Made by a program: the position numbers and the translations under genes. Under the pieces are notes generated by a model. The model did not search any database. It worked only from the letters and a program-made list of their open reading frames with translations, and was not told where the DNA came from. Source: Desulfonatronum sp. (GTDB lineage: Bacteria; Desulfobacterota; Desulfovibrionia; Desulfovibrionales; Desulfonatronaceae). From it: 64,000 nt of DNA. Location of the stretch: contig DSBL01000136.1 in the NCBI GenBank assembly GCA_011049455.1, positions 2,789 through 66,788 of the forward strand, given 5' to 3'. Below, piece after piece: positions 20,117 through 32,689 of this stretch (within the stretch, counting starts at the first letter, position 1; each line of letters begins with the position of its first letter).

Positions 20117-22459
20117 CTATGCGGGCCAGAATATGGGCAGCAGCCAGACGCAGACCAGCATGGAAATGATCGTCAACGGCACACCCAGTTTCATGTAGTC
20201 CACAAAGCGGTAACCGCCGGGGCTCATCACCAGCAGATGAGCCGGATGCGACAGGGGACTGGCAAAGCTGGACGAGGCGGCAATGGCCACGGTCATCATC
20301 AGCAAATGCGGCGAGATGGTCATGCTGTGGGCCGTAGTCAGAGCCACCGGCGCCATGAGCACGACCAGAGCCGCGGTGGGAATCACCTGTGTACCAAGAA
20401 CAGTGATCAAAAATAACGCCGCCACCACCCACCGCGGTCCAAAATCGCCGACCACGGCGATCAAGCCCTCGGCGCCCAACTGGGCCGCGCCAGTATGCTC
20501 CACGGCCACGCCCAAGGGAAGCATGCAGGCGATCAAAAAGATGACCTTCCACTCAATGGCCCGGTAGGCCTCGTCCATGCTCAGGCAGCGGCACAAAATC
20601 ATCAGTGAGGCCCCGGTCACAGCGGCAATGGCAATGGGCAGCAAGCCGAGAATCGCACTGAGAATCGTGGCCGCCATGACGATCGCGGCCACGGGCGCAC
20701 GCTCCAAACGCGGCGCCTGGGCCGCGGCCCGGTCCAGCACCAGAAAATCAGGATTACGGGCCACGGCCTCCAATTGGCTTCGCGGTCCGTACACCAGCAA
20801 CGCATCCCCGAATTTAAGCGGCGTTTCCTGCAGCCCAACGCGCAAGGCTCGTCCCTTGCGCCAGATGGCCAGCACGCTGACCCCGTAATGTTCCCGGAAC
20901 AGAAGTTCGGCCAGGGTGCGTCCGGCCAGGGTTGTTCTGGGCGAAAGCAAAACCTCGGTCACGCCCACTTGCTGGGATTCCAGGTCTGCCAGCAGGCTGG
21001 GGTCATGCTCGGCTATTTCCAACTGCTCCAGCCCCTTCATGATTTCCAGATCACGGGCCGAACCTTGCAGCAAAAGCAGATCCCCGGCCAGAATCCTTTC
21101 CTGTGGCGCGGGCATGCATATCATGCCCGCGTCCCGTTGAATGCCGACCACGGTCAAGCCGAATGCATTCCCCAGGCGGCTTTCCACCAGATCATGGTCC
21201 GTCAACACCGATCCCGCTGGAACACGCACGGCCAGAAGGCGGGTGTCGTCCTCGGCCAGAACGTGCTCCGCCGCGGCCTGCAGATTCCGAAGATCAGCGA
21301 CAAAACCCGCCTGGACCAACTTGTCCAGCGCTTGCTGTTCGCCTTGCAGAACCAGACGGTCGCCAGCGGAAAAAAAATGTCGCAAAGGATCCTTGATCGC
21401 CGTACCGTCTGCTTTGTACAAAGCGAGAATCTGCACCTGATGCTCCCTGCGCATATTGCATTGGCTCAAGGTCTGCCCCACCAAGGGAGACTTTTCGCTG
21501 ATCCGCGCCTCGGCCACGATCATTCGCTCACAGAGCATGGTGTCCAGACGCTGCAGCGGTTCAATCTGCAGGTGCCGGCTGCCGTGAAACCGTTGCAATT
21601 GATCCGGGCGCCCGTGAACCACCAGCACGTCCCCAGCCTGCAAGACATCGTGCGGTCTTGGGGACAACATGAGCACCCCCTTGCGCTGCAAGGCCACCAC
21701 GGTCAAGAACAAGGCTGACCCGAGGCGGCTTTCCATCAAGGTGCATCCGTCCAAGAAAGAGTTGTCAGGAATGCGGATGGTAAAAATATGTGCTTCCAGT
21801 TGATAAGATGTACCTGGAGAATTGGAGTCAGCAACGGAATTTGAAGCACGCCGCGGCAGCAGATGCCGGCCGATGAGCACGACAAAAATGGTGCCGGTGA
21901 AGACAATGGCCGCGGTAATCGGGGTGAAGTCGAACAGGGCAAAGGCCTCCAACCCGGCATTACGCAAGGCGTCCGTGGCCAGGATATTCGGCGGGGTGGA
22001 TATCCCGGTGAAGGGTCCGCCCAGCAGACAGCCCAAGGCCAGAGGCATGAGCAACCTGGACGGCGGCCGGCCGCTGCGACGAGCCAGTTCCATGGTCGCG
22101 GGCAGAAGAATCGCGGCCACGGTCGTGGTATTGATCAACGCGGAAAGAATACTCGCGGCAAGCATCAGCACTGCGATCAGCACGGCCTCGCTGCCTCTGG
22201 CGAAGCGCTGCAAAGGCTGCCCCAATTGGTGGGCGATGCCTGTCCGGGTCAGGCCCGCGGAAAGGATGAACATGGCCCAGACCGTGACCACGGCCGGGCT
22301 GCTGAATCCGGCCAACGCCTCCTGCGGGGAGACCAGACCGGTCAAGGCCAGTGCGGACAGCACAAGCAGACCGACCAGATCAACACGCAGCCAGCCTCCG
22401 ATGAACACCGCCAAGGCGGCCAGGGTAATGCCCAAAAGAATACCCAGTTGCACTGTCAC
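20117..22459 (-). CDS. SLC13/DASS-type permease with four TrkA-C domains
   Basis: GFSSPAVVTV, SALINTT, ISTPPNIL N-half; PLSHPAHLLVM.PGGY.F.DY.KLG C-half; four TrkA-C-like repeats centrally. Start likely GTG 22459 (ORF track extends to 22543). Confidence 0.88.
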   Translation of the reverse strand: MTVQLGILLGITLAALAVFIGGWLRVDLVGLLVLSALALTGLVSPQEALAGFSSPAVVTVWAMFILSAGLTRTGIAHQLGQPLQRFARGSEAVLIAVLMLAASILSALINTTTVAAILLPATMELARRSGRPPSRLLMPLALGCLLGGPFTGISTPPNILATDALRNAGLEAFALFDFTPITAAIVFTGTIFVVLIGRHLLPRRASNSVADSNSPGTSYQLEAHIFTIRIPDNSFLDGCTLMESRLGSALFLTVVALQRKGVLMLSPRPHDVLQAGDVLVVHGRPDQLQRFHGSRHLQIEPLQRLDTMLCERMIVAEARISEKSPLVGQTLSQCNMRREHQVQILALYKADGTAIKDPLRHFFSAGDRLVLQGEQQALDKLVQAGFVADLRNLQAAAEHVLAEDDTRLLAVRVPAGSVLTDHDLVESRLGNAFGLTVVGIQRDAGMICMPAPQERILAGDLLLLQGSARDLEIMKGLEQLEIAEHDPSLLADLESQQVGVTEVLLSPRTTLAGRTLAELLFREHYGVSVLAIWRKGRALRVGLQETPLKFGDALLVYGPRSQLEAVARNPDFLVLDRAAAQAPRLERAPVAAIVMAATILSAILGLLPIAIAAVTGASLMILCRCLSMDEAYRAIEWKVIFLIACMLPLGVAVEHTGAAQLGAEGLIAVVGDFGPRWVVAALFLITVLGTQVIPTAALVVLMAPVALTTAHSMTISPHLLMMTVAIAASSSFASPLSHPAHLLVMSPGGYRFVDYMKLGVPLTIISMLVCVWLLPIFWPA

Positions 22460-22556
22460 GACACAATCCTGTTGAACCTGTTTTCCAGGAGTCGACAAAA
22501 ACCTGCCGGCTCTCAAAAAATGCCAGCTCTCATCAGGCAACACCCAGCGGGACCAG

Positions 22557-22685: not shown

Positions 22686-23360
22686 TCAATCCAGTCTGGA
22701 ATCGAGGTTAAGAGGGAAGCGCAACGTGAGAATACCGGTTGCATTGCTGCTGGCAATCACGACCTGCAGCCTGTCGGACAAAAGCAACAGCAATGGAAGA
22801 TCCAGATTAACGTTCTCCTGGTTGAGACCTTCCGCGGCCGTGAACACAACCAGGACGTTCTCTGCTTCCGGGGAAAAGCCGAGATGGATCTGCTTGCCGA
22901 CGGCCCCGCCGTTGAGCAATATTTCCAGGCAGACGTAGAGAATATGCAAAAATTCAAAAGGATGCGTTCGCATCAAAATATGTTCCGGACATTTGTGAAC
23001 CTCGAGACTCATCTCCTTGAGCCGCACCAACCGACCAGCTATATGCGCCAGCAGGGACAGAAAGTCCCCGACATCCACGTTATCCAGGGCCCTGTCCGCG
23101 GTGTGGACGAAGGTGTTGAACCGGCGCACAATAGTATCCGTGAGCACGACCTGCCGGGAGATGTCCCCAACCCCTGTCCGCAGCCTTGAAGCCGGCAGAA
23201 CGCCGCCTCTCTCGGTCATGGCCAGGAGGTCGCCCAAAAGCCCGTTCTGCTCGTTGATGATTGCCAAATGGTTTTTGATCTCGTGGGAAATGCTCGCTGA
23301 AATCTTGGCGAAAAAAGCCAGCTCACCAGCGTGCAGCGTTTTCCATTGCCCGGGGTTCAT
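22686..23360 (-). CDS. HisKA-containing pseudokinase / putative histidine phosphotransferase
   Basis: H-box ISHEIKNHLAII intact; N, G1 and G2 boxes of the HATPase domain not recognisable. ATG 23360 behind GAGGG. Confidence 0.7.
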   Translation of the reverse strand: MNPGQWKTLHAGELAFFAKISASISHEIKNHLAIINEQNGLLGDLLAMTERGGVLPASRLRTGVGDISRQVVLTDTIVRRFNTFVHTADRALDNVDVGDFLSLLAHIAGRLVRLKEMSLEVHKCPEHILMRTHPFEFLHILYVCLEILLNGGAVGKQIHLGFSPEAENVLVVFTAAEGLNQENVNLDLPLLLLLSDRLQVVIASSNATGILTLRFPLNLDSRLD

Positions 23361-23429
23361 CGGTCCCTCGCTGTTTTTCAAAAAACGTATCCAATCATGG
23401 ATGGCTTGTGTTCATGCATGCGTCATGGC

Positions 23430-23795
23430 TCACGTCCGGCCCGGCAACATGGCCTGAATACTGTGGATCAAGGTTTCGATCTTCAGGGGTTTAAGCAGAT
23501 ACATGGCCCCTGAATTGACCCCGGCCTGAAAATCCCGTTCCGAAGTATGACCGGTCAGAAAGATGCACTTCATGTCCGGGAACCTGTTCTTCAGTTGCTC
23601 CCAAAGCTCCAGCCCACTCAAATGGGGCATCTTCACATCCAGCACGACCAGATCGTACTGCTTCTGTTCCGCGGCCTTCAAAGCCTGTTCTCCACTGGTC
23701 ACGAAGTCCGCGGCAATCCCCCGGATGTCCAGCCGTTCGGCAAGAGCGGAAACCAGCTCTTCCTCGTCGTCAACCAATAAGATCCGCACCTGCAT
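23430..23795 (-). CDS. Single-domain response regulator
   Basis: LLVDDEE, VLDVKMP, FLTGH, LLKP. Confidence 0.93.
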   Translation of the reverse strand: MQVRILLVDDEEELVSALAERLDIRGIAADFVTSGEQALKAAEQKQYDLVVLDVKMPHLSGLELWEQLKNRFPDMKCIFLTGHTSERDFQAGVNSGAMYLLKPLKIETLIHSIQAMLPGRT

Positions 23796-25533
23796 CTTCC
23801 TCCCTTGTTTCCTGGTTCACCGGCAAACTCACGGTGAATGTCGTACCCTGCCCCAGTTCGCTGACCACATGTATCTCGCCGCCCAGTTTCTTCACTAGGC
23901 CGTAGGTGATGGACAATCCCAGACCCGTGCCCTGCTTGGACTTGGTGGAAAAGAACGGCTCAAAAATACGTTTCATATTATCCGGGGAAATCCCGCAACC
24001 GTTGTCCGCAATATGAATTTTCACCCCCGGCTCGGCCGCCTCCAGCCATATCTCGATCCGACCTCCATCCTGTACCGCGGCAAAAGCATTGTTGATGATG
24101 TTCAAAAATACCTGCTGCAGCTGGCCGCGATCCGTGACGATCTCCGGAATCTGCCCTGTAATGTCCAAAGACACCTGAATATTGCGATACTGGGCCTCCT
24201 TGTCCAGAAAACCGAGCACATCACGGAGGGTCTGGGTTACGTCGACCTGTTCCAGCTGCACATCCACGTGTCGGGCAAAACCGAGCAGGCGATGGGTAAT
24301 GGTGCTGCACCTATCCACTGAAGAAAGGATGGAATCCACCAGGGACAACAATTTCGCATCCCGGACGTATTTTTCCGAAAAAGAAAACAGATCCTTTATC
24401 AACCCTGCCTTTTCATTGATCACGGCCAAGGGATTGTTGATCTCGTGGGCCACGCCCGCGGCGAGCCTGCCGATGGAGGCCATCTTGTTGGTGTGTTCCA
24501 TTTTGTGCAGGGCGATGGAACGTCTGATGTCCGCATCATAAATCCTACGCACCAGAAATGTAGACGAGTACAAGATCACCCCAAAAATGCAGGTCACACT
24601 GACAACCAGAAAACCAGTCAATTCCAGGCGAAACTTCCACCAGTTCTTCATCATCTCCTGCTGCTGCTTGACCACCATGAACACAAAAGGACTGTTGCTG
24701 ATGTGCACATACCCGAGAAAAGCATTTTTTTGCTGTGCATCCTTGACGTCGAGAACAACTGGATTTTCCGAATAAGAAGGTACGGGATACGGTAGTTGAT
24801 GCAGAACATTTCCATGGAACTGACTTGGCGTCTGCAGCACTCCTTTCCGGTTGACGACAAACGCATCAGTGGTGGGCCGCACGTTCAGGGAGTGAATCAA
24901 TCTGTTGAATTGCTCCGTATCGATGGTCGCGCGAAGGATAAATAATTTGCCCTCCGCACATACCTCTTTCACGGCAATCACGAAATGGGGCACATCCCTG
25001 AACCCCAGAAAAACATCGCTGATGAAGATCCTGTGATCAAGCACTTCTTCAAACCAATCCTGCTCGGAGTAATTCAGGCCTGTGAAATCGAACGGTCCCA
25101 CATAGGCCCGCTGCACCCCGTGCTCATCGATCAGACCGATATCCACAAACCCGCCGAAGGCTTCGTTCATGCTGTGAAACAAACTTCGAAGATGATTCTC
25201 GTCGGCCAACGTATCAAAGGAGCCGCTGTTGGCGATAAATTCCAGCACGGCCACCCGTTGCTGCAGAAACTTGGAGATGCTCAGGCTGGTATTGGAGAGC
25301 AGGCTGGTCATGGGATGGATGAATTCCGCCTGCATGGCCCTGCGGTTGAGATTGTAATCCATGGCCGTGATGATCACCAAGGGAATGACGGAAACGCTGG
25401 TCACCACCAGGACAACAAGCTTCCAGATCCGACGGTAGTTGAACAGCCCCTCCTCTTCGCCCGTGGCTTGAGTCGCATCCCAGAACACGGGCTTGAAAAG
25501 CTTCTGCAAAGACACGAAAAGGCTATCGCCCAT
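23770..25533 (-). CDS. Sensor histidine kinase with Cache-like domain
   Basis: Two TMs; AHEINNPL, QVFLNIINNA, DNGCGI, FFSTK, GTGLGL. Confidence 0.93.
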   Translation of the reverse strand: MGDSLFVSLQKLFKPVFWDATQATGEEEGLFNYRRIWKLVVLVVTSVSVIPLVIITAMDYNLNRRAMQAEFIHPMTSLLSNTSLSISKFLQQRVAVLEFIANSGSFDTLADENHLRSLFHSMNEAFGGFVDIGLIDEHGVQRAYVGPFDFTGLNYSEQDWFEEVLDHRIFISDVFLGFRDVPHFVIAVKEVCAEGKLFILRATIDTEQFNRLIHSLNVRPTTDAFVVNRKGVLQTPSQFHGNVLHQLPYPVPSYSENPVVLDVKDAQQKNAFLGYVHISNSPFVFMVVKQQQEMMKNWWKFRLELTGFLVVSVTCIFGVILYSSTFLVRRIYDADIRRSIALHKMEHTNKMASIGRLAAGVAHEINNPLAVINEKAGLIKDLFSFSEKYVRDAKLLSLVDSILSSVDRCSTITHRLLGFARHVDVQLEQVDVTQTLRDVLGFLDKEAQYRNIQVSLDITGQIPEIVTDRGQLQQVFLNIINNAFAAVQDGGRIEIWLEAAEPGVKIHIADNGCGISPDNMKRIFEPFFSTKSKQGTGLGLSITYGLVKKLGGEIHVVSELGQGTTFTVSLPVNQETREEDAGADLIG

Positions 25534-25539
25534 CGCTAT

Positions 25540-26742
25540 TCACTCCGAAGCATCCTTCCTGGCTTGCTGCAAAAGCTGTGTCAGCACATCGATATCCACG
25601 GGTTTTTGCAAATAGGCAAAGGCGCCCCGCTCGAGGCATCGGCGCTCGTCATCCTTGGATCCGTGTCCAGTAAGGATGATCACCCGCACATGCGGATGCC
25701 TGGCCTTGACCCTGCGAAGCACTTCCAGGCCGTCGATGCCCGGCATTTTCAGGTCGAGAACCATCACGTCCGGTTCGTCCTCTTCCACAAAAGCCAGGGC
25801 CTGTTCACCGTCATAGACCACCGCTGAACCGATTTCACGCATCAACAATCGCTCGGACAAGGTATGCACGAACTCGCGCTCATCATCCACCAAAAGCAAT
25901 TTTCTCGAAGCCTCGGGCTCATGCTTACGATACATGCTCTTTTGATAAAAATCCGGACCATGCTGGACATGAACTTCGCGCACTCCGGGAACAGCTGCCA
26001 CGATATCACGCAGTTCAGCCTCCATTTTGGCAAGCATGATCACGCTGCGGACAATGGTCAGGACAACAAGACCCGCGTCAGCTTCAACCAGGACCGCATG
26101 GCCTTCCTCGGCAAGCGCCTGCTCCACCTGTGCCGCCAGGCGAAAATCCTCTACTGCCTTGCGGGAATCCGGCGTGGGCCGCAGAATATCCTTTGTGACC
26201 TGGGAAAGAATGCTCTTCACCGCGTCTTCAACCTTTTTTCTGTCCATGGGGATCACCAAATCGTAAAGATCATGATCCCACGGCTCCCGTTGCAAAACCT
26301 CTTCAGTCCAGGCCGTTGCAACCGCGTCTTCGCTCAATACTTGCTCCTTGGCCGTGTCTGCGGGGATATTCAATTCTGTCGCTGCATTGCGCACACGGAA
26401 AGAAAACTCTGCGATCAAAAGCACATGCAGAGCATGGCTGATGGAACGGGGGATGAGATGAACAAAACTGCCGGAAAAGATCATGTCCTCACGCAATGAA
26501 TCGGCCAACACGGTCTTGACCGCGGCCAGATTTCGCTTTCTTTCCAAGGCCAGGAATCCTCTCGGGCCGTCCATGGGCATCAATGTCCGAATAAGCGCTG
26601 AAGTCCGGCAACCGAGACGCTGGGCGGTCATATCCAGCAGTACATGGTCATCCGTAACAGGTAATCCAGTCTTGAGCGATAAAGCGCGAACAACCTCCTT
26701 ATGCCGACAAAACGATCCATGAAAAATGCTGATGATGGACAT
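25540..26742 (-). CDS. Response regulator with N-terminal cytidylate-kinase-like and BON-like domains
   Basis: N-term MSIISIFHGSFCRHKEV (CMK-like, degenerate P-loop), WT..V...EPWD..LYDLVIP, BON-like ...VAAVPGVREV, C-term REC (LLVDDE, VLDLKMP, ILTGHG, QKP). Start ATG 26742. Confidence 0.8.
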   Translation of the reverse strand: MSIISIFHGSFCRHKEVVRALSLKTGLPVTDDHVLLDMTAQRLGCRTSALIRTLMPMDGPRGFLALERKRNLAAVKTVLADSLREDMIFSGSFVHLIPRSISHALHVLLIAEFSFRVRNAATELNIPADTAKEQVLSEDAVATAWTEEVLQREPWDHDLYDLVIPMDRKKVEDAVKSILSQVTKDILRPTPDSRKAVEDFRLAAQVEQALAEEGHAVLVEADAGLVVLTIVRSVIMLAKMEAELRDIVAAVPGVREVHVQHGPDFYQKSMYRKHEPEASRKLLLVDDEREFVHTLSERLLMREIGSAVVYDGEQALAFVEEDEPDVMVLDLKMPGIDGLEVLRRVKARHPHVRVIILTGHGSKDDERRCLERGAFAYLQKPVDIDVLTQLLQQARKDASE

Positions 26743-26771: not shown

Positions 26772-29390
26772 TTACACCGAACTTAAAGGCGTTTCCATCA
26801 TGCCGATAATGTCGCGGCAAAGTTTGTCCCGATAATAGCAAACCTTGTCCGGATTACGCATGATCATGTCCAATTGTCTGGTATGTATGGTTAAATATCC
26901 CAAAATTTTCAGACGCTGCAGCAAAGAGTCCTGGTCAAGGCCGCCAACCCTGGCGAACAAGGCGTCCTCATGCGTTTCCACGCTGAAACCGTGCTCCTCC
27001 AGCAACCCGCCGATGAATTTGGTGCGCATGGTTCTGCGACGGATATCCGCGGCCCCCCCCTTGAAGGAAAAACGGGCGTAGTTTTCATACGCCAAGTCGC
27101 CCACCAAGGTTTCCACCGTCGAGAAATGAAATCCCATGCGCGAGGTCAGATTGCAGAAGTATTTGGAAATCATGAAATAATTGCGCTGGGCGTAAGCCGA
27201 AGGGCCAGCCGTGGACAGGTTGGGATTGGAAGCCGCCTCCAGCATCACGGACATGAAGCCTTTTCCGTCCATGGGCGGCGGACCTTCCCAGTGCAGGGCA
27301 GTGATCCCGGCCCAAAGGGCCTGCATGGGCAGGGACTGGATGTTGGTGATGTGCACGAACGGGCCGTCCACGGGCTCTCGAAATCCGTCCTCCAAGTCCA
27401 AGACCCACCATTGCATGGGCACGTCCACCACCAGACGCTTGCTGGCCCGGCGCGCCAAGGCGGTTTTCTGGCCAAAGGAAAACATCTCCCGCACGCTCAT
27501 CTCATGGCAGAAGCGGGTTATGTCGTGCAGGGTACGGCAGTTCCTGACTTTGAAATCAGGAGAATCCGGATCAGTCAAATACAGGGGCGTGACGTATTCC
27601 ATGACCTCCTGAAGTGTTTCATGCACCGGAGTTCCATCCATCAGACCCCGCCTAGGGACTTGGTCCGCCAGAACATGTTCCGCCCGGCCGGAATAGACCG
27701 TGCGCATGTCCGCATCAACAGTGATCACTTTCCCGGCAGAAAGTTTTTTCATGGCATCAGGAACATTGAACAAAGCCGGCACACCGAATTCCCTGGCCAC
27801 ATTGGCCAGATGTCCGGTAATGCCGCCAACTTCGGTAATCACTGCCGCGGTCCGGGGCAACAGCGTAGCCCATCGCGGCAAGGCCTGCATGGCTACAAGC
27901 ACGGCCCCCTGAGGAAAACGCAACATATCTTCATTGTTACGCACCAAAAATACTTCTCCGGCAGCAACTCCTGGGCTGGCCGTGTCCCCGTCGCGCAACA
28001 AGAACGCATCCTCGCCTTTTATGTCCGCCGTTACAAAGCATTGCTTGCGCAAAGAAGGCGCCATCTGCTGAAGCGGCCTGCATTGCACGATCAGCAAGCG
28101 ACCATTCTGGTCCAGCACCCATTCCACATCCACGGGCGTCTGAAAACCCTTTTCCAGCATCAAAGCGGTCTTGGCCACCTCGGAAACCATGTCGTCATCC
28201 AGACTAGGCAACCCGCCTTCACCAGAATGCAACGCCTTTCGCACCACCCCTTCTTCTGCCAGGCAGACGAATTTCTCATTTTTTTGGCGTATTTCCCGCC
28301 GCAAAATAGTGCTGGGATCTTTTCGGGAAACCACCCACAAATCCGGGGAAATGCTTCCGTCCACCACGGCCTTGGGCAAACCGGGCATTGCATTGATAAA
28401 CAAGGCATCAACGCGGATGTCCGTTGGATCGCGGGAATAGACAACACCTCCGGCTACGGCGTCGATCATGGCCATGCAACCCACGCACATCGGCACATCC
28501 TCGTCACGCATGCCCCGGTTCAGGCGATAGGAAATGGCCGTAACCGAGTACTTGCTGGCCAGAATCTCCTTATAGACGGTCAGCAAGTTTTCCGGGCTGA
28601 CGTTCAATTCGGAGCGATATTGTCCGGCAAAGGATGATCCGGCCGCATCCTCACCCACGGCACTGGAGCGGACGGATACACGCACGCCCTTTCCGATTCG
28701 TGCTTCCAGTGCACCATACCCATTGCGAATTGCCTGTTCCAAATCCTCTGGAACTTGGGCATTGATGATTAAGAGTTGAATTTCCGAACTGACGCGGTAC
28801 AGGGTGGAGGCATCCTCCACCTCTGTGGCCTGCAAACGGCGATCAATCTCGACCTGCAGTTTGTTGGCAACCATGAAACGATCATACCCGGCCGTGGTCA
28901 CGACAAACCCCGAGGGAATGCGCAGTTCGGGAAATAAATGCAAGATTTCCCCGAGGTTGGCCATTTTTCCGCCTACGGCGTCAGCCATTTCCTTGTCTAC
29001 GCTTTCCAGGGGCAGCACCATGTCCTTGACGACCACAGCCTGTCGATGCTCCAAAATCCTACGGATATGGGTGCGAATGGATGTAAAGACGGTTTCCAGG
29101 TCCGCGTATCCACCATCCGCAAGTTCCCGGAGATGCTTGACCATGGAGTAAACGTCCACGGTAACCGCGGTGCAACGCGAACGAACAAAGACCATGCCGA
29201 AACTGTGCATGCCGGTCAGGGCCGTTTCCATTTCGCTCATCACGCGCAAGGCCTGATTGTTGGATTCCAGCAACAGCTTGAAGGAATTATATTTGGTTTT
29301 GAAAAGCTCGCGAACCAGTTCTGAGGTTTCCTCTTCCCCAGGAGACTTCCTGGAAAAAAAACATTTGAGGCGAAGCAGCAATGAGCGCAT
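26772..29390 (-). CDS. PEP-synthase-like protein (ATP-grasp + phospho-His swivel domain, no PEP/pyruvate barrel)
   Basis: VGGKMANLGE, VRSSAVGED...SFAGQY, DVEW...IVQCRPL; His domain GGITGHLANVAREFGVP; about 290-aa C-terminus unlike the PEP-binding barrel. Confidence 0.85.
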   Translation of the reverse strand: MRSLLLRLKCFFSRKSPGEEETSELVRELFKTKYNSFKLLLESNNQALRVMSEMETALTGMHSFGMVFVRSRCTAVTVDVYSMVKHLRELADGGYADLETVFTSIRTHIRRILEHRQAVVVKDMVLPLESVDKEMADAVGGKMANLGEILHLFPELRIPSGFVVTTAGYDRFMVANKLQVEIDRRLQATEVEDASTLYRVSSEIQLLIINAQVPEDLEQAIRNGYGALEARIGKGVRVSVRSSAVGEDAAGSSFAGQYRSELNVSPENLLTVYKEILASKYSVTAISYRLNRGMRDEDVPMCVGCMAMIDAVAGGVVYSRDPTDIRVDALFINAMPGLPKAVVDGSISPDLWVVSRKDPSTILRREIRQKNEKFVCLAEEGVVRKALHSGEGGLPSLDDDMVSEVAKTALMLEKGFQTPVDVEWVLDQNGRLLIVQCRPLQQMAPSLRKQCFVTADIKGEDAFLLRDGDTASPGVAAGEVFLVRNNEDMLRFPQGAVLVAMQALPRWATLLPRTAAVITEVGGITGHLANVAREFGVPALFNVPDAMKKLSAGKVITVDADMRTVYSGRAEHVLADQVPRRGLMDGTPVHETLQEVMEYVTPLYLTDPDSPDFKVRNCRTLHDITRFCHEMSVREMFSFGQKTALARRASKRLVVDVPMQWWVLDLEDGFREPVDGPFVHITNIQSLPMQALWAGITALHWEGPPPMDGKGFMSVMLEAASNPNLSTAGPSAYAQRNYFMISKYFCNLTSRMGFHFSTVETLVGDLAYENYARFSFKGGAADIRRRTMRTKFIGGLLEEHGFSVETHEDALFARVGGLDQDSLLQRLKILGYLTIHTRQLDMIMRNPDKVCYYRDKLCRDIIGMMETPLSSV

Positions 29391-29480: not shown

Positions 29481-29513
29481 AAAAGAAACAAAGGGCGGGA
29501 TTGCATCCCGCCC
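29481..29513 (-). terminator. Intrinsic terminator after the TauE operon
   Basis: GGGCGGGAT-GCA-ATCCCGCCC followed by TTTGTTTCTTTT on the minus strand. Confidence 0.75.
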
Positions 29514-29590: not shown

Positions 29591-30319
29591 TTACGCTTCC
29601 TTTTTCTTGCCGGCCGTCATCTTCAGGCCAAGGCCTTCAAAAAAGAACAGAATGGCCATACCCCACCACAGAGTATAAATAATATAAAAAATCAGGCTGA
29701 AGGTCAGGATTCCAGCCTTTGAACCGGCACTTTCCGCAACTATGCCGTAAAAATTATAGCCCACTTCCACGGACTTGGAAAGGACTTCCCCCAGGTGCTT
29801 GGCATCGGCGAAACGTTCCTGGGCGTTCAACTCTTTTTCCAACCCCTTGATCAAATTATTCCAGACGTACAACAACTCCCGGGCCTGCGGTTCGCCATGT
29901 CCGTATCTGGACCCGACTTTTGCCCCATCATTGTGGAACATGTCCCTGGAATCGATGATCGCAGCCTGCAGGACCGCACCAAGGTCACCCTCGACATGCA
30001 CAGTTGAACCATCCAGGCTGGCGCCGGCACCGGCTGCCTGAAGCATGGTCTGAGCCATGGCGCCCCAGCGTTCATTATTCAGTTCCAAACTGGCCTTAAA
30101 GGTTTTCCCGACAAAGACCTGGTTCTTTTCTTCCATCACTTCCATGAAATACGAAGATCCCTTGGCAATGGAGTTGAACAGGTTGTCCGCGGCCTGAAAG
30201 GCGTTCAGGCCTTTGCCGTCCGCGTCCTTCCCGAACAACGGTGACCACATCAAAAACAGGATCACGAAAAAGGTGAGTATCAGCCCCACTCCGTAGCTTA
30301 ATTCTTTCTTATCGATCAT
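29591..30319 (-). CDS. Hypothetical membrane protein, TauE partner
   Basis: 242 aa, one N- and one C-terminal TM around a soluble domain; starts 2 nt after the TauE stop with GAGGA SD. Confidence 0.8.
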   Translation of the reverse strand: MIDKKELSYGVGLILTFFVILFLMWSPLFGKDADGKGLNAFQAADNLFNSIAKGSSYFMEVMEEKNQVFVGKTFKASLELNNERWGAMAQTMLQAAGAGASLDGSTVHVEGDLGAVLQAAIIDSRDMFHNDGAKVGSRYGHGEPQARELLYVWNNLIKGLEKELNAQERFADAKHLGEVLSKSVEVGYNFYGIVAESAGSKAGILTFSLIFYIIYTLWWGMAILFFFEGLGLKMTAGKKKEA

Positions 30320-30321
30320 AA

Positions 30322-31602
30322 TTATTCCTCCCCCTTCAAGGCCTTCATGTTCGTAAAGAACATGTAAAAAACCCAGGCGGCGAACATGCCAACGATGATG
30401 AAGAACAATATGTTGCCCGTGGTGCTCAGGATCTTGCCCATCTCTTGGGAAATATTCAGGTACCCCATTTCACCCATTTTCTCCGGCAACACGAACAAGC
30501 GGTTGATGAACCCGCCCAGGATGGTCGTGGCATAGAAGCCTCGGATGTAGATGCCCTTGACCACCTTGGTGGTCATGGCCCCGATCTGGATCCCGATCAA
30601 CGAGCCCAGCAGCATGCCCATGGCCAGGGTATAGAATATGAACCCGTAGATGGCGTACTGGGTGATGGAGGCATAGCCGGCGGTGAAGATAATCTGCAGA
30701 ATGTCCGTGCCGATGGTGGTAAAAGAGGACACGCCCATCAGGTAGACGAACATGGGGAAGGTCAAAAACCCGCCGCCCACGCCCATGATGGCCGAAACAA
30801 ACCCAACCACGGCGCCGCAAGCAGCCACGAACCAACCCGAGAGCTGCTTCCCGCCCGGGACAAGGTCCTGATCAAAGGTGATCATGGGCGGAACCTTCAG
30901 AGCCTGGATTTTCGAGGCCAGACCGGGACCGGAAGGCTCGGCGCCGTGGGCCCCGTGTCCGCCGCTGCCGCCGTGCACATCCACCACGTCCACCTTGCGC
31001 GCCCGAAGAAAATCCAGCATGGCGTAGGAGCCCAGAAAACCGAGCAGGACCACGAACATCACGCTGATGAAGGTGTCGCTGAGAATGGGATTGATTTCAT
31101 ACAAGGTCCTGTTGATCACGCCGCCCCCGGTGACGCCCACACCCGCGCCCACGAGAAAGGCGATGGCCAGGGCCACGGACACGTTCCCCAGCTTTTTGTG
31201 GATCACCGTGCCCATGATCGCCTTGGCGAAAATATGAAACAGATCCGTTCCCACGGCCAGAATGCCCTTGATGCCCGCACTCATCAAGGCCGGAGTAATA
31301 ATGAAGCCGCCGCCCGCGCCGATGCAGCCGGTAATCAGCCCGGCAAACAGCCCGATGATAATGGATATGTAGAAGATAAACGGTGAATAGAAGCTGGGCA
31401 TATAGGAATATTTGCCGCCCAACAGCTCAGGCAGATCGGCGTGGGACAGACCCACGCCGATGGCGCAGGGAATGAGCAGCAGGGTCAGGATGAACATCCG
31501 TTTTCTGCTCCTCAAGATGTTCATGGACGTCTCGTAGTCCCACCTGGCGTACTGGGCTGCGCCGAGCTTCATCATGTCCGCCATGTTTCTGAAAAATCGC
31601 AT
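30322..31602 (-). CDS. Sulfite exporter TauE/SafE family protein
   Basis: GLITGCIGAGGGFIITPALM, AVGTDLFH, SAIMGVGGGFLTFPMF, IGTDILQI. Start ATG 31602 behind GGAGG. Confidence 0.88.
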   Translation of the reverse strand: MRFFRNMADMMKLGAAQYARWDYETSMNILRSRKRMFILTLLLIPCAIGVGLSHADLPELLGGKYSYMPSFYSPFIFYISIIIGLFAGLITGCIGAGGGFIITPALMSAGIKGILAVGTDLFHIFAKAIMGTVIHKKLGNVSVALAIAFLVGAGVGVTGGGVINRTLYEINPILSDTFISVMFVVLLGFLGSYAMLDFLRARKVDVVDVHGGSGGHGAHGAEPSGPGLASKIQALKVPPMITFDQDLVPGGKQLSGWFVAACGAVVGFVSAIMGVGGGFLTFPMFVYLMGVSSFTTIGTDILQIIFTAGYASITQYAIYGFIFYTLAMGMLLGSLIGIQIGAMTTKVVKGIYIRGFYATTILGGFINRLFVLPEKMGEMGYLNISQEMGKILSTTGNILFFIIVGMFAAWVFYMFFTNMKALKGEE

Positions 31603-31679
31603 TGTTGCATTCCTCCAGGATAAAATAATGTTCATTGGGGATTCTGAAATCCTTGAGCACGTCATGCGTTCGGCTATGC

Positions 31680-32057
31680 TTATCCGGCCTCACCTCCTTT
31701 GCTCCTTTGAATCGCCTCGGAAACCTTGTCCAGCAGCTCGTCAATAGGGCAGGGCTTTAACATATAGTCGTAAGCCCCCAGTTGCATGCCTTTGTCCGCC
31801 GTCTCCAGCGTAGCGTGGCCCGTGAGCATGATCACCGGAACGCCGGAATTGATTTTTTTCAGTTCCTGCAGCGTGGCCACGCCATCCATGCCGGGCATGC
31901 TCACGTCCAGGATTACGGCGTCATAGGCTCGTCCGCGCATGGCCTCTAGCGCCTTTGCGCCGGAATCCACGCCATCCACGACAATACCGCGCATTCGCAA
32001 TCTCGTAATTATGGTGTCCAAAAAGACCTTCTCGTCATCAATGATCAGTATGTGCAT
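31680..32057 (-). CDS. Single-domain response regulator
   Basis: LIIDDE, ILDVSMP, MLTGH, YMLKP. Confidence 0.93.
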   Translation of the reverse strand: MHILIIDDEKVFLDTIITRLRMRGIVVDGVDSGAKALEAMRGRAYDAVILDVSMPGMDGVATLQELKKINSGVPVIMLTGHATLETADKGMQLGAYDYMLKPCPIDELLDKVSEAIQRSKGGEAG

Positions 32058-32086: not shown

Positions 32087-32689
32087 TCAGCGAAGCATCC
32101 TGCGACAGGATTCAAGGATGTCGGAATAACAGGATTCAACAGGATAGAGGTGAAAGATTTTGAAGCGGACAATGCCGATGACCATGGAAAAGATAATGAT
32201 CCCCATGCGGAATGGTTTACAGATTCTGACTGTTCCATCCGACTGCCCCTTTTCAATGCCCTCGATGAGCAAATCGAGAAAACAATTATATATTTCCTCA
32301 ATACTTTGTCGGCATTCAGGATTGATGCTCGCAAGCTGGTATGGATAATTCCGGAAAAGCAGCAAGAATTCGTATTCCATTGTTTCCGAGAGCATGAGGA
32401 ACAGTTCCACCGTGCGCTCAACGAGCATCAATCCGGTGCCGTTTCGCTGAATCTTTGAGGAAACCTCATGGAGAATATCATCTTTCACCTTGCGCAACAG
32501 TTGCACAAGGATTTCCTCCTTGGTCTTGAAATGATGGAATATGGTCCCTTCCGCGGCACCGCTGAGCCTGGAAAGGTCTACAATGGACGTGTCTTTGAAT
32601 CCGCGCTCGGCAAACAGCTTGGTGGCCGCATTGAGAATATCTGTGCGATAGGACAAGGATTTCTCCTTTGGTTGAAATGCGGTAGACAA
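32087..32689 (-). CDS. TetR/AcrR family transcriptional regulator
   Basis: ILNAATKLFAERGF..TS...L...SGAAEGTIFHHFKTKEEIL; TTG start. Confidence 0.92.
   Translation of the reverse strand: MSTAFQPKEKSLSYRTDILNAATKLFAERGFKDTSIVDLSRLSGAAEGTIFHHFKTKEEILVQLLRKVKDDILHEVSSKIQRNGTGLMLVERTVELFLMLSETMEYEFLLLFRNYPYQLASINPECRQSIEEIYNCFLDLLIEGIEKGQSDGTVRICKPFRMGIIIFSMVIGIVRFKIFHLYPVESCYSDILESCRRMLR

Follow-up and report, generated by a model that had tools for sequence, protein, structure and literature searches.

A PEP synthase-like protein of Desulfonatronum with an unfamiliar C-terminal domain and a proposed place in receiver circuits

What does a protein do when it carries the database label "PEP synthase" (PEP, phosphoenolpyruvate) but has a different domain in place of the one that binds PEP and pyruvate? 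The question is raised by a gene at 26772..29390 on the minus strand of a 64,000-nucleotide stretch of Desulfonatronum sp. DNA (assembly GCA_011049455.1, contig DSBL01000136.1, positions 2,789 to 66,788), hereafter called the window. The gene, whose coordinates include the stop codon, is the longest frame at its position and encodes 872 amino acids, and its start (M1) is common to the homologues. We named the product PPSL, for PpsA-like protein. Our analysis leads us to propose, with moderate confidence, that PPSL is an ATP-driven phosphohistidine enzyme with a non-pyruvate acceptor and that it works in receiver circuits controlling anion uptake. It would thus not act as a metabolic housekeeping enzyme.

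PPSL is built of four parts: a helical N-terminal domain, an ATP-grasp domain, a swivel domain and a C-terminal domain, all read from the minus strand. The ATP-grasp nucleotide-binding domain (PPDK_N; residues 137-444, 28059..28982) matches Pfam PF01326 at E 1e-85 and aligns with the PpsA structures 2ols and 9dae, and the PEP-utilizers swivel (mobile) domain (residues 492-561, 27708..27917) matches PF00391 at E 8e-18. The alignment with the solved PpsA structures (2ols, 9dae and 8a8e) is confined to PPSL residues ~120-577. The ATP-grasp residues K142, R241, S242, S243, E247, D248, G256, Q257, D421, E423, Q436 and R438 agree with the PpsA alignments and with the family consensus, and H527 of the GGITGH motif (residues 522-527; His codon at 27810-27812) is aligned to the catalytic-His motif GGRTCH of 2ols. 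An earlier reading of this DNA made from its letters alone (the sequence-only reading) had described both sets of motifs as intact, and these comparisons bear it out. H527 is retained in 141 of the 151 family sequences, distant paralogues included, in our conservation alignment, and the ATP-grasp and His modules look catalytically competent. The same reading pointed to a Thr residue that is the regulatory phosphosite in PPDK/PpsA. T525 is indeed present (codon at 27816-27818), but it occurs in only 70 of the 151 members (Ala in 58), and a search of the window's own genome for a PSRP/DUF299 regulator of Thr525 found none. Because of these two results, regulatory phosphorylation of the Thr is not a trait of the family.

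The C-terminal domain (residues 575-872, 298 amino acids; 26775..27668) is specific to the family. No Pfam family was found for these residues, or for residues 1-125, even at E<=5; the PEP/pyruvate-binding TIM barrel, PF02896, had no match in PPSL at that threshold, and no Pfam or NCBIfam model covers the domain. Searches of the PDB with the C-terminal part gave no match with a single sequence, nor with a 95-sequence profile at E<=10, and nothing was aligned beyond position 592. AlphaFold2 (AF2), supplied with a 95-sequence alignment of residues 575-872, returned a model with a pLDDT of 91 and a pTM of 0.81, in which the secondary-structure order is HH-EEE-HH-EEEE-H-EE-HHH. Two helices at the N-terminal side lead into a unit of three strands; two further helices come before an antiparallel sheet of four strands, and a helix, a hairpin and three helices complete the model. 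The domain is thus predicted to adopt an alpha+beta fold, not a (beta/alpha)8 barrel. A Foldseek comparison of residues 575-872 with 350,542 PDB chains and BFVD detected no match at E<=1e-3; the highest-ranked structures (RecJ/DHHA1, arginine kinase, I-CreI, DesKC and ACT) had TM-scores of at most 0.23 and were dismissed as noise. A divergent TIM barrel was likewise considered for this domain and ruled out by the Pfam search at E<=5, the PDB profile search and the AF2 secondary structure. The earlier proposal that about 290 residues have been swapped in for the PEP/pyruvate barrel is supported by the missing PF02896 match and the non-barrel model, and the fold search brought up no standard PEP-binding barrel.

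The same reading had noted an extra helical N-terminus of 125 residues, and it reappears in the AF2 model of residues 1-135 as three long helices (pLDDT 91.5). This N-terminal domain (residues 1-125, 29016..29390; helices at 19-59, 66-90 and 96-114) is also family-specific. Foldseek found no match to it in the PDB at E<=1e-3, only generic similarities to helical bundles.

Conservation, expressed as the share of columns that are >=80% conserved in the 151-sequence alignment, was 6% in the N-terminal domain, the least conserved part of the protein, 17% in the ATP-grasp domain, 23% in the swivel domain and 18% in the C-terminal domain. By this measure the C-terminal domain is conserved to an enzyme-like degree, as strongly as the ATP-grasp domain. 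Positions that are >=95% conserved within it are P602, L603, F613, C618, H622, D623, R626, H629, F637, G695, G753, H755, G778, G779, A781, R789, L797, D809, G831 and D841. K777, which belongs to a strand-KGG-helix motif, is largely conserved and is Arg in a group of kinase-dead paralogues described below. The window protein has every motif residue of the family C-terminal domain, namely C-x3-H-D-x2-R-x2-H, R-x-G-x-H, F-K-G-G-A-A-D-x2-R-R-x2-R and R-Q-x-D; the segment NCRTLHDITRFCHE begins at residue 617. In the model the FKGGAAD segment lies at a strand-to-helix junction. Phosphate-binding strand-loop-helix motifs of this general kind exist, for example the KxGG of amino-acid kinases; FKGGAAD resembles them by analogy, and we make no claim of homology.

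A query with the C-terminal domain retrieved 3,791 proteins from a large protein collection, almost all of about 870 residues with the same pair of Pfam domains; their database names are "pyruvate, water dikinase" or "PEP/pyruvate-binding domain-containing protein". An exhaustive HMMER search with the domain gave 1,188 clusters at 50% identity, the architecture being almost always unchanged; the C-terminal domain of the window protein is 63% identical to that of P0018. Among named genomes the hosts are Desulfonatronovibrio, Syntrophobacterales, Desulfobaccales, Desulfobacterales, Desulfomonile, Desulfarculus and Desulfatiglans, together with a few Nitrospirota or Elusimicrobiota bins. Genome contigs were scanned with a profile built from a 15-sequence alignment. 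Of 301 genomes sampled evenly across the phylum, 119 had the domain, in one to at least seven copies each, and 157 had dsrA; both were found in 113 (odds ratio 59, Fisher p 1e-37, kinship ignored). PPSL is a large PpsA-derived family that is largely restricted to dsrA genomes.

The window gene had been taken for a single paralogue, which turned out not to be so: it is one of seven in its own 2.87-Mb genome, each with PPDK_N and the mobile domain. The other six lie at C44:3154-5778(+), C30:27068-29629(+), C30:20457-23090(-), C51:15139-18321(+), C2:6676-9267(-) and C52:9922-12444(-), and most of them adjoin lone receivers, histidine kinases or sigma-54 activators. The genome also encodes, on C48 (L094:3847-7470), a canonical protein of 1,207 residues with PPDK_N, mobile and PEP-utilizers_C domains, which is likely its true PpsA. 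Because this three-domain protein is present, the housekeeping PpsA function is encoded elsewhere than in the window. The highest copy number that we saw was nine, in genome G041, where one locus (L139:5942-15981) has TauE and Alph_Pro_TM (PF09608) genes followed by three tandem PPSL genes, the middle one with a degenerate ATP-grasp domain. The paralogue at C51:15139-18321 (L089:8932-12114) has ~200 extra C-terminal residues with a weak match to 3keto-disac_hyd (E 3e-4). A search for Rosetta-stone fusions among longer and shorter family members revealed no extra informative Pfam domain, and an 1,833-residue open frame of G041 had no domain upstream of its PPSL part.

About 93% of the family retain every ATP-grasp catalytic residue and the swivel His. 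In some ten sequences that form one clade, the ATP-grasp site is destroyed (K142A, SS to GR, Q257P, D421 and E423 lost) and H527 is mostly changed to Arg, and yet all of the C-domain motif residues are kept. The members of this clade (L099:4963-7650, P0146, P0184, P0189, P0204, P0212, P0160 and P0144) are candidate pseudo-kinase subunits. The paralogue at C30:27068-29629 is the reverse case, in which the kinase half is intact and the C-domain is degenerate, almost all of its conserved motif residues having been lost; three tandem single-domain receiver genes lie directly upstream of it (C30:25812-29629, L090:14260-18077). Because the two cases show opposite losses, the kinase half and the C-domain can decay independently, a pattern compatible with hetero-oligomerisation among paralogues or with a C-domain whose function is independent of phosphotransfer in cis.

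Which genes accompany PPSL? For the orthologue group of the window gene, we compiled 54 loci with >=5 kb on both sides. A receiver was present in 52 of them, and a TauE permease gene, upstream and on the same strand, in 49; the TauE proteins of this group end in ...GEE or ...REED. A gene for a 242-residue membrane protein, which we named TM242, lies immediately upstream in 40 (median distance 402 nt), and Usp was found in 28. Other loci have a block of Usp, a DVU0150-family protein, TauE, DUF4881 and a 261-residue protein, then a histidine kinase, a sigma-54 regulator, a receiver and PPSL. The distant paralogues were sampled at 40 loci from ~36 genomes, comprising 54 PPSL genes. A lone single-domain receiver (REC) gene was located <=250 nt from 29 of these genes (54%) and <=3 kb from 44, as compared with rates of 0.6% and 3.3%, respectively, for random 2.6-kb intervals of the window's genome (binomial p 2e-49 and 2e-55). 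A histidine kinase was found <=3 kb from 37, and TauE <=4 kb from 21, leaving 61% with none in that range. Two arrangements recurred: an operon of PPSL, histidine kinase, REC and PPSL, and, at L135 and four other loci, a sigma-54 activator followed by PPSL, in divergent orientation to a TauE operon. The lone receiver is therefore the most constant partner of PPSL, and TauE is a partner of particular paralogue classes, the window's included. The link to neighbouring REC/HisKA proteins that had been suspected from the window thus has strong statistical support across the family.

In the window itself, PPSL lies in a co-directional cluster on the minus strand, and the gene order is repeated at locus L001 around a PPSL whose C-domain is 63% identical to the window's. 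Upstream of PPSL are a TetR gene (32087-32689), the single-domain response-regulator receiver REC1 (31680..32057; Pfam E 7e-31; synteny kept in L001), a TauE/SafE (TSUP) permease of 447 residues (30322..31665; Pfam E 1e-32) and TM242 (29591..30319). No Pfam family was found for TM242. Hydrophobic segments at its two ends, near residues 5-31 and 204-228, flank a middle part of ~170 residues that by the positive-inside rule is probably periplasmic; the Lys-rich tail, ...KKKEA or ...KKKEV, is conserved. TM242 may assist the TauE permease as an accessory protein outside the cytoplasm. Its position is taken in other paralogue classes by a PtxB-like protein, DUF4881 or Alph_Pro_TM. The ~200-nt gap between TM242 and PPSL, the sole sizeable gap of the cluster, contains a strong terminator-like hairpin at 29483..29513 on the minus strand (GGGCGGGATGCAATCCCGCCC followed by a T-run), with a 9-bp stem that includes 7 G-C pairs; it is a consensus match only. 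Because of this hairpin, PPSL may head a transcription unit that it shares with the signalling genes. Matches to a sigma-54 promoter upstream of the operon were no commoner than expected by chance.

The signalling genes begin 30 nt downstream of PPSL with a Cytidylate_kin2-like plus receiver protein (25540..26742; Pfam), which has the same position in L001. Its P-loop is degenerate, reading ISIFHGSFCRHKE instead of a Gly-rich Walker A, and the protein recurs near family members (L001 and L008); with this motif, a role as nucleotide-binding sensor is likelier than kinase activity. Next are a dCache_1/HisKA/HATPase_c sensor histidine kinase (23770..25533; Pfam), of a type that also stands beside PPSL genes in L136, and a second single-domain receiver, REC2 (23430..23795; Pfam E 4e-26). 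The adjacent receivers retain the acceptor Asp, Thr and Lys. A histidine-kinase-like protein of 231 residues (22686..23381) has no Pfam family and shows weak BLAST similarity to the neighbouring kinase; it carries an H-box-like SHEIKNHL, recurs in L001 and L008, and could be a phosphotransfer protein. The cluster ends with a CitMHS/DASS-type anion transporter with TrkA_C domains (20117..22543; Pfam).

The available genetics come from the "nitrate cluster" of D. vulgaris Hildenborough and D. alaskensis G20, described by Korte et al. 2014 (PMC4001038). In this cluster DVU0251 is TauE, DVU0250 a hypothetical protein, DVU0249 a PtxB-like binding protein, DVU0248 a histidine kinase, DVU0247 a receiver and DVU0245 a dual-specificity phosphatase (DSP), and the published annotation of DVU0246 (Dde_0604 in G20) is PPDK_N plus the mobile domain without the barrel (PMC4001038). 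Mutants of DVU0251, DVU0249, DVU0247 and DVU0246 gained nitrate resistance, and the DVU0245 mutant had the opposite phenotype, nitrate sensitivity (PMC4001038). Growth of the G20 mutants on thiosulfate was slightly poorer, and the authors suspected a leaky thiosulfate transporter (PMC4001038). DVU0246 is known from mutant phenotypes only. When gene order and published annotation are compared, the DVU0246 type is by synteny a PPSL family member. The C52 paralogue of our genome has the corresponding surroundings (L093:7811-15110), in the order Phosphonate-bd, histidine kinase (sCache/HAMP/PAS), REC, PPSL and DSPc phosphatase, which is that of DVU0249 to DVU0245. This paralogue has 840 residues and intact C-domain motifs, and the neighbouring DSP-type Cys phosphatase contains HCRHGIGRT. 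The window gene has neighbours of the same kind as the nitrate cluster (TauE, histidine kinase, lone REC) but not its order of PtxB-like protein, histidine kinase, REC, PPSL and DSP phosphatase; its class is arranged as TauE, TM242, PPSL, Cytidylate_kin2-REC and histidine kinase, and a DSP phosphatase is absent. For the nitrate-cluster class, which is not that of the window gene, the published phenotypes are compatible with a switch between kinase and phosphatase, and an O-phosphorylated acceptor is hinted at by the DSP partner.

A second Desulfovibrio locus is similar in layout. There, the TauE-containing operon DVU0150-DVU0146, induced during syntrophic growth, runs divergently from DVU0151 (PMC4641369, PMC4265775), and the L135-type order, in which a sigma-54 activator and PPSL are divergent from TauE, resembles this arrangement. 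In the literature on DVU0144, DVU0152 and DVU0145-0150 we found no PPSL-type gene described, only papers on the context of the TauE cluster.

One can envision the following mechanism. The intact motifs suggest that the ATP-grasp domain would phosphorylate the swivel His527 with ATP, and by analogy with PpsA this would proceed through a pyrophosphoryl-His intermediate with release of AMP and Pi. The swivel domain would then hand the phosphoryl group over to the C-domain, positioned where PpsA has its PEP/pyruvate barrel. There, a strictly conserved and strongly basic site, comprising C618, H622, D623, R626, H629, H755, the phosphate-loop-like strand-K777-G778-G779-helix motif, R785, R786, R789, D809 and D841, might bind a non-pyruvate acceptor. 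At the level of the circuit, PPSL would be a component, and not only a target, of two-component systems in which lone receivers, sensor kinases and sigma-54 activators govern anion permease modules of the TauE type. Its net effect on the permease pathway may be positive, as suggested by the phenotype that mutants of the PPSL-type, receiver and TauE genes share and by the opposite phenotype of the Cys-phosphatase mutant. As to the acceptor, the two main candidates are almost level, each short of an even chance. A protein of the circuit, be it a receiver or a residue of some other protein, is marginally ahead; the many paralogues, each with its own receiver, speak for it. A small anionic molecule or nucleotide comes close behind, favoured by the strongly basic site, which is identical in all paralogues, and by the precedent of all characterised relatives; what is left of our expectation goes to anything else.

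Several observations weigh against this proposal. The use of ATP, the formation of AMP and the transfer to the C-domain are deduced from homology and domain position, and our literature searches found no biochemical study of the family. Gene neighbourhood cannot separate a signalling component from a co-regulated target enzyme, the dsrA association was computed without phylogenetic correction, and the link to DVU0246 rests on gene order, not on sequence comparison. Furthermore, the kinase-dead sub-clade with its intact C-domain shows that this domain can be selected for without phosphotransfer in cis, and the C30:27068-29629 paralogue combines a live kinase half with a degenerate C-domain.

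One alternative scenario is that PPSL is a non-canonical histidine kinase, in which the phosphoryl group of His527 passes to the Asp of the Cytidylate_kin2-REC protein, REC1 or REC2 and the C-domain only docks the receiver or dimerises. The lone REC genes that lie within 250 nt of more than half of the family genes, often translationally coupled to them, favour this scenario, as do the intact acceptor residues of the adjacent receivers and the paralogue with a live kinase half and a degenerate C-domain that follows three tandem REC genes. On the other hand, ordinary histidine kinases are already encoded in the same operons, no PPSL-REC fusion was seen among the proteins examined, and we know of no precedent for transfer from a swivel His to an Asp. 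Mere docking, moreover, does not require some 20 near-invariant Cys, His, Asp, Arg and Lys residues, and it is disfavoured because these residues are strictly conserved even in paralogues with a dead kinase half. We consider this scenario unlikely.

Another scenario is a small-molecule dikinase, in which the C-domain binds and phosphorylates an anionic metabolite, a nucleotide or an oxyanion imported by TauE, the product is a phospho-metabolite or messenger, and the receivers only regulate the enzyme or its expression. To our knowledge, all characterised relatives with ATP-grasp and swivel modules phosphorylate small molecules or glycans, and the Arg/His-rich C-domain site with its KGG motif would suit such a substrate. 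The presence of many paralogues with an identical site and different partners is reminiscent of messenger synthases, and the pairing of the nitrate-cluster type with a DSP-type phosphatase of opposite phenotype resembles that of glucan water dikinase with SEX4. However, no neighbouring enzyme points to a candidate substrate, most distant paralogues have no TauE gene nearby, and phosphorylated sulfur oxyanions would be chemically unstable. In our judgement this scenario, too, is improbable.

A third possibility, that PPSL is a scaffold or pseudoenzyme that binds receivers or permeases without catalysis, finds some support in the existence of the kinase-dead sub-clade, but it is very unlikely given that the window protein and the great majority of the family keep all of the ATP-grasp catalytic residues and the swivel His. 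Finally, that PPSL is an ordinary PEP synthase (pyruvate, water dikinase) whose PEP-binding domain has diverged very far, as its database names and its best NCBIfam matches, the PpsA models, might suggest, can be dismissed almost entirely, since these models cover only positions 4-468 of 798 at scores far below their cut-offs (328.5 versus 598 bits for NF005057, 324 versus 739.75 bits for TIGR01418), PF02896 is missing, no barrel is predicted, the genome has a separate three-domain enzyme of canonical type and seven copies per genome are atypical of a gluconeogenic enzyme.

Thousands of database entries named "pyruvate, water dikinase" in sulfate-reducing bacteria almost certainly carry the wrong annotation. 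PPSL is an abundant family of one to nine copies per genome and is tied to dsrA organisms and to permeases suspected of transporting sulfate, thiosulfate or sulfite; the sole available genetics connect it to nitrate resistance in Desulfovibrio, which is relevant to the control of oil-field souring. Identification of the acceptor would establish a phosphotransfer reaction and a protein fold that are both new, and it could also explain how anion uptake is coupled to energy state or environmental signals in sulfate reducers. As a speculation with a small chance of being correct, PPSL might represent a new class of signalling enzymes in sulfate reducers, swivel-histidine proteins driven by ATP that work alongside ordinary histidine kinases and supply receiver circuits with phosphoryl groups and, through them, with information on ATP/AMP status, or else it might gate or energise binding-protein-dependent TSUP anion permeases in the manner of a phosphotransferase system (PTS); in either case the C-domain would serve as the transfer station.

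How does PPSL compare with known enzymes? With PpsA (pyruvate, water dikinase, EC 2.7.9.2; TIGR01418/NF005057) it shares the order of PPDK_N and swivel domains and the T-x-H motif, but a 298-residue alpha+beta domain stands in place of the PEP-utilizers_C TIM barrel, a three-helix domain is added at the N terminus, and the genes are multi-copy and located among signalling genes. The inference from the sequence alone that the protein is not a PEP synthase thus agrees with the replacement of the barrel by another fold and with the separate canonical PpsA of the genome. Classical histidine kinases are more distant: neither HisKA/DHp nor HATPase_c had a Pfam match in PPSL at E<=1, and the similarity of the C-domain to DesKC was at noise level (E 0.17, TM 0.16).

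Rifampicin phosphotransferase (RPH), PigC/RedH and phenylphosphate synthase have ATP-grasp and swivel modules and non-pyruvate acceptors, as proposed for PPSL. The likening of PPSL to RPH in the sequence-only reading holds for the shared modules but is loose in other respects, since the swivel domain of RPH is C-terminal and PPSL has the PpsA order; the acceptor domains of RPH and PigC are dissimilar to that of PPSL and are placed between the ATP-grasp domain and the C-terminal swivel. The rifamycin phosphotransferase model NF041857 scored 204.8 bits against a cut-off of 999, matching only the ATP-grasp part and a second short stretch, and the score of the PigC model was far below its cut-off.

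PTS Enzyme I (EI) uses the swivel-His phosphotransfer of the same superfamily, and the PPSL swivel domain aligns with EI structures. In the EI-Ntr (PtsP) to NPr to PtsN chain, sensor kinases and ion transporters are regulated by a relay into which the phosphorylation state feeds. EI, however, is PEP-driven through its TIM barrel and donates to HPr/NPr, whereas PPSL has an ATP-grasp donor module and no barrel, and no HPr-like partner was seen for it. The EI model TIGR01417 scored 16.8 against 341.7 bits and matched the swivel domain alone, without the combination of PEP-utilisers_N and PEP-utilizers_C.

The plant alpha-glucan, water dikinase with SEX4/LSF2 is similar to PPSL in being an ATP-grasp/His dikinase with a non-pyruvate acceptor domain and an opposing DSP-type phosphatase, and the nitrate-cluster class of PPSL has such a phosphatase adjacent to it. 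The plant enzyme differs in its domain order and its carbohydrate-binding acceptor modules and has no homology to the C-domain, and the window PPSL is without a phosphatase neighbour. Taken against these systems, the kind of enzyme, a swivel-His dikinase with a swapped acceptor domain, is already known; the acceptor domain, the N-terminal domain and the embedding in receiver circuits are new.

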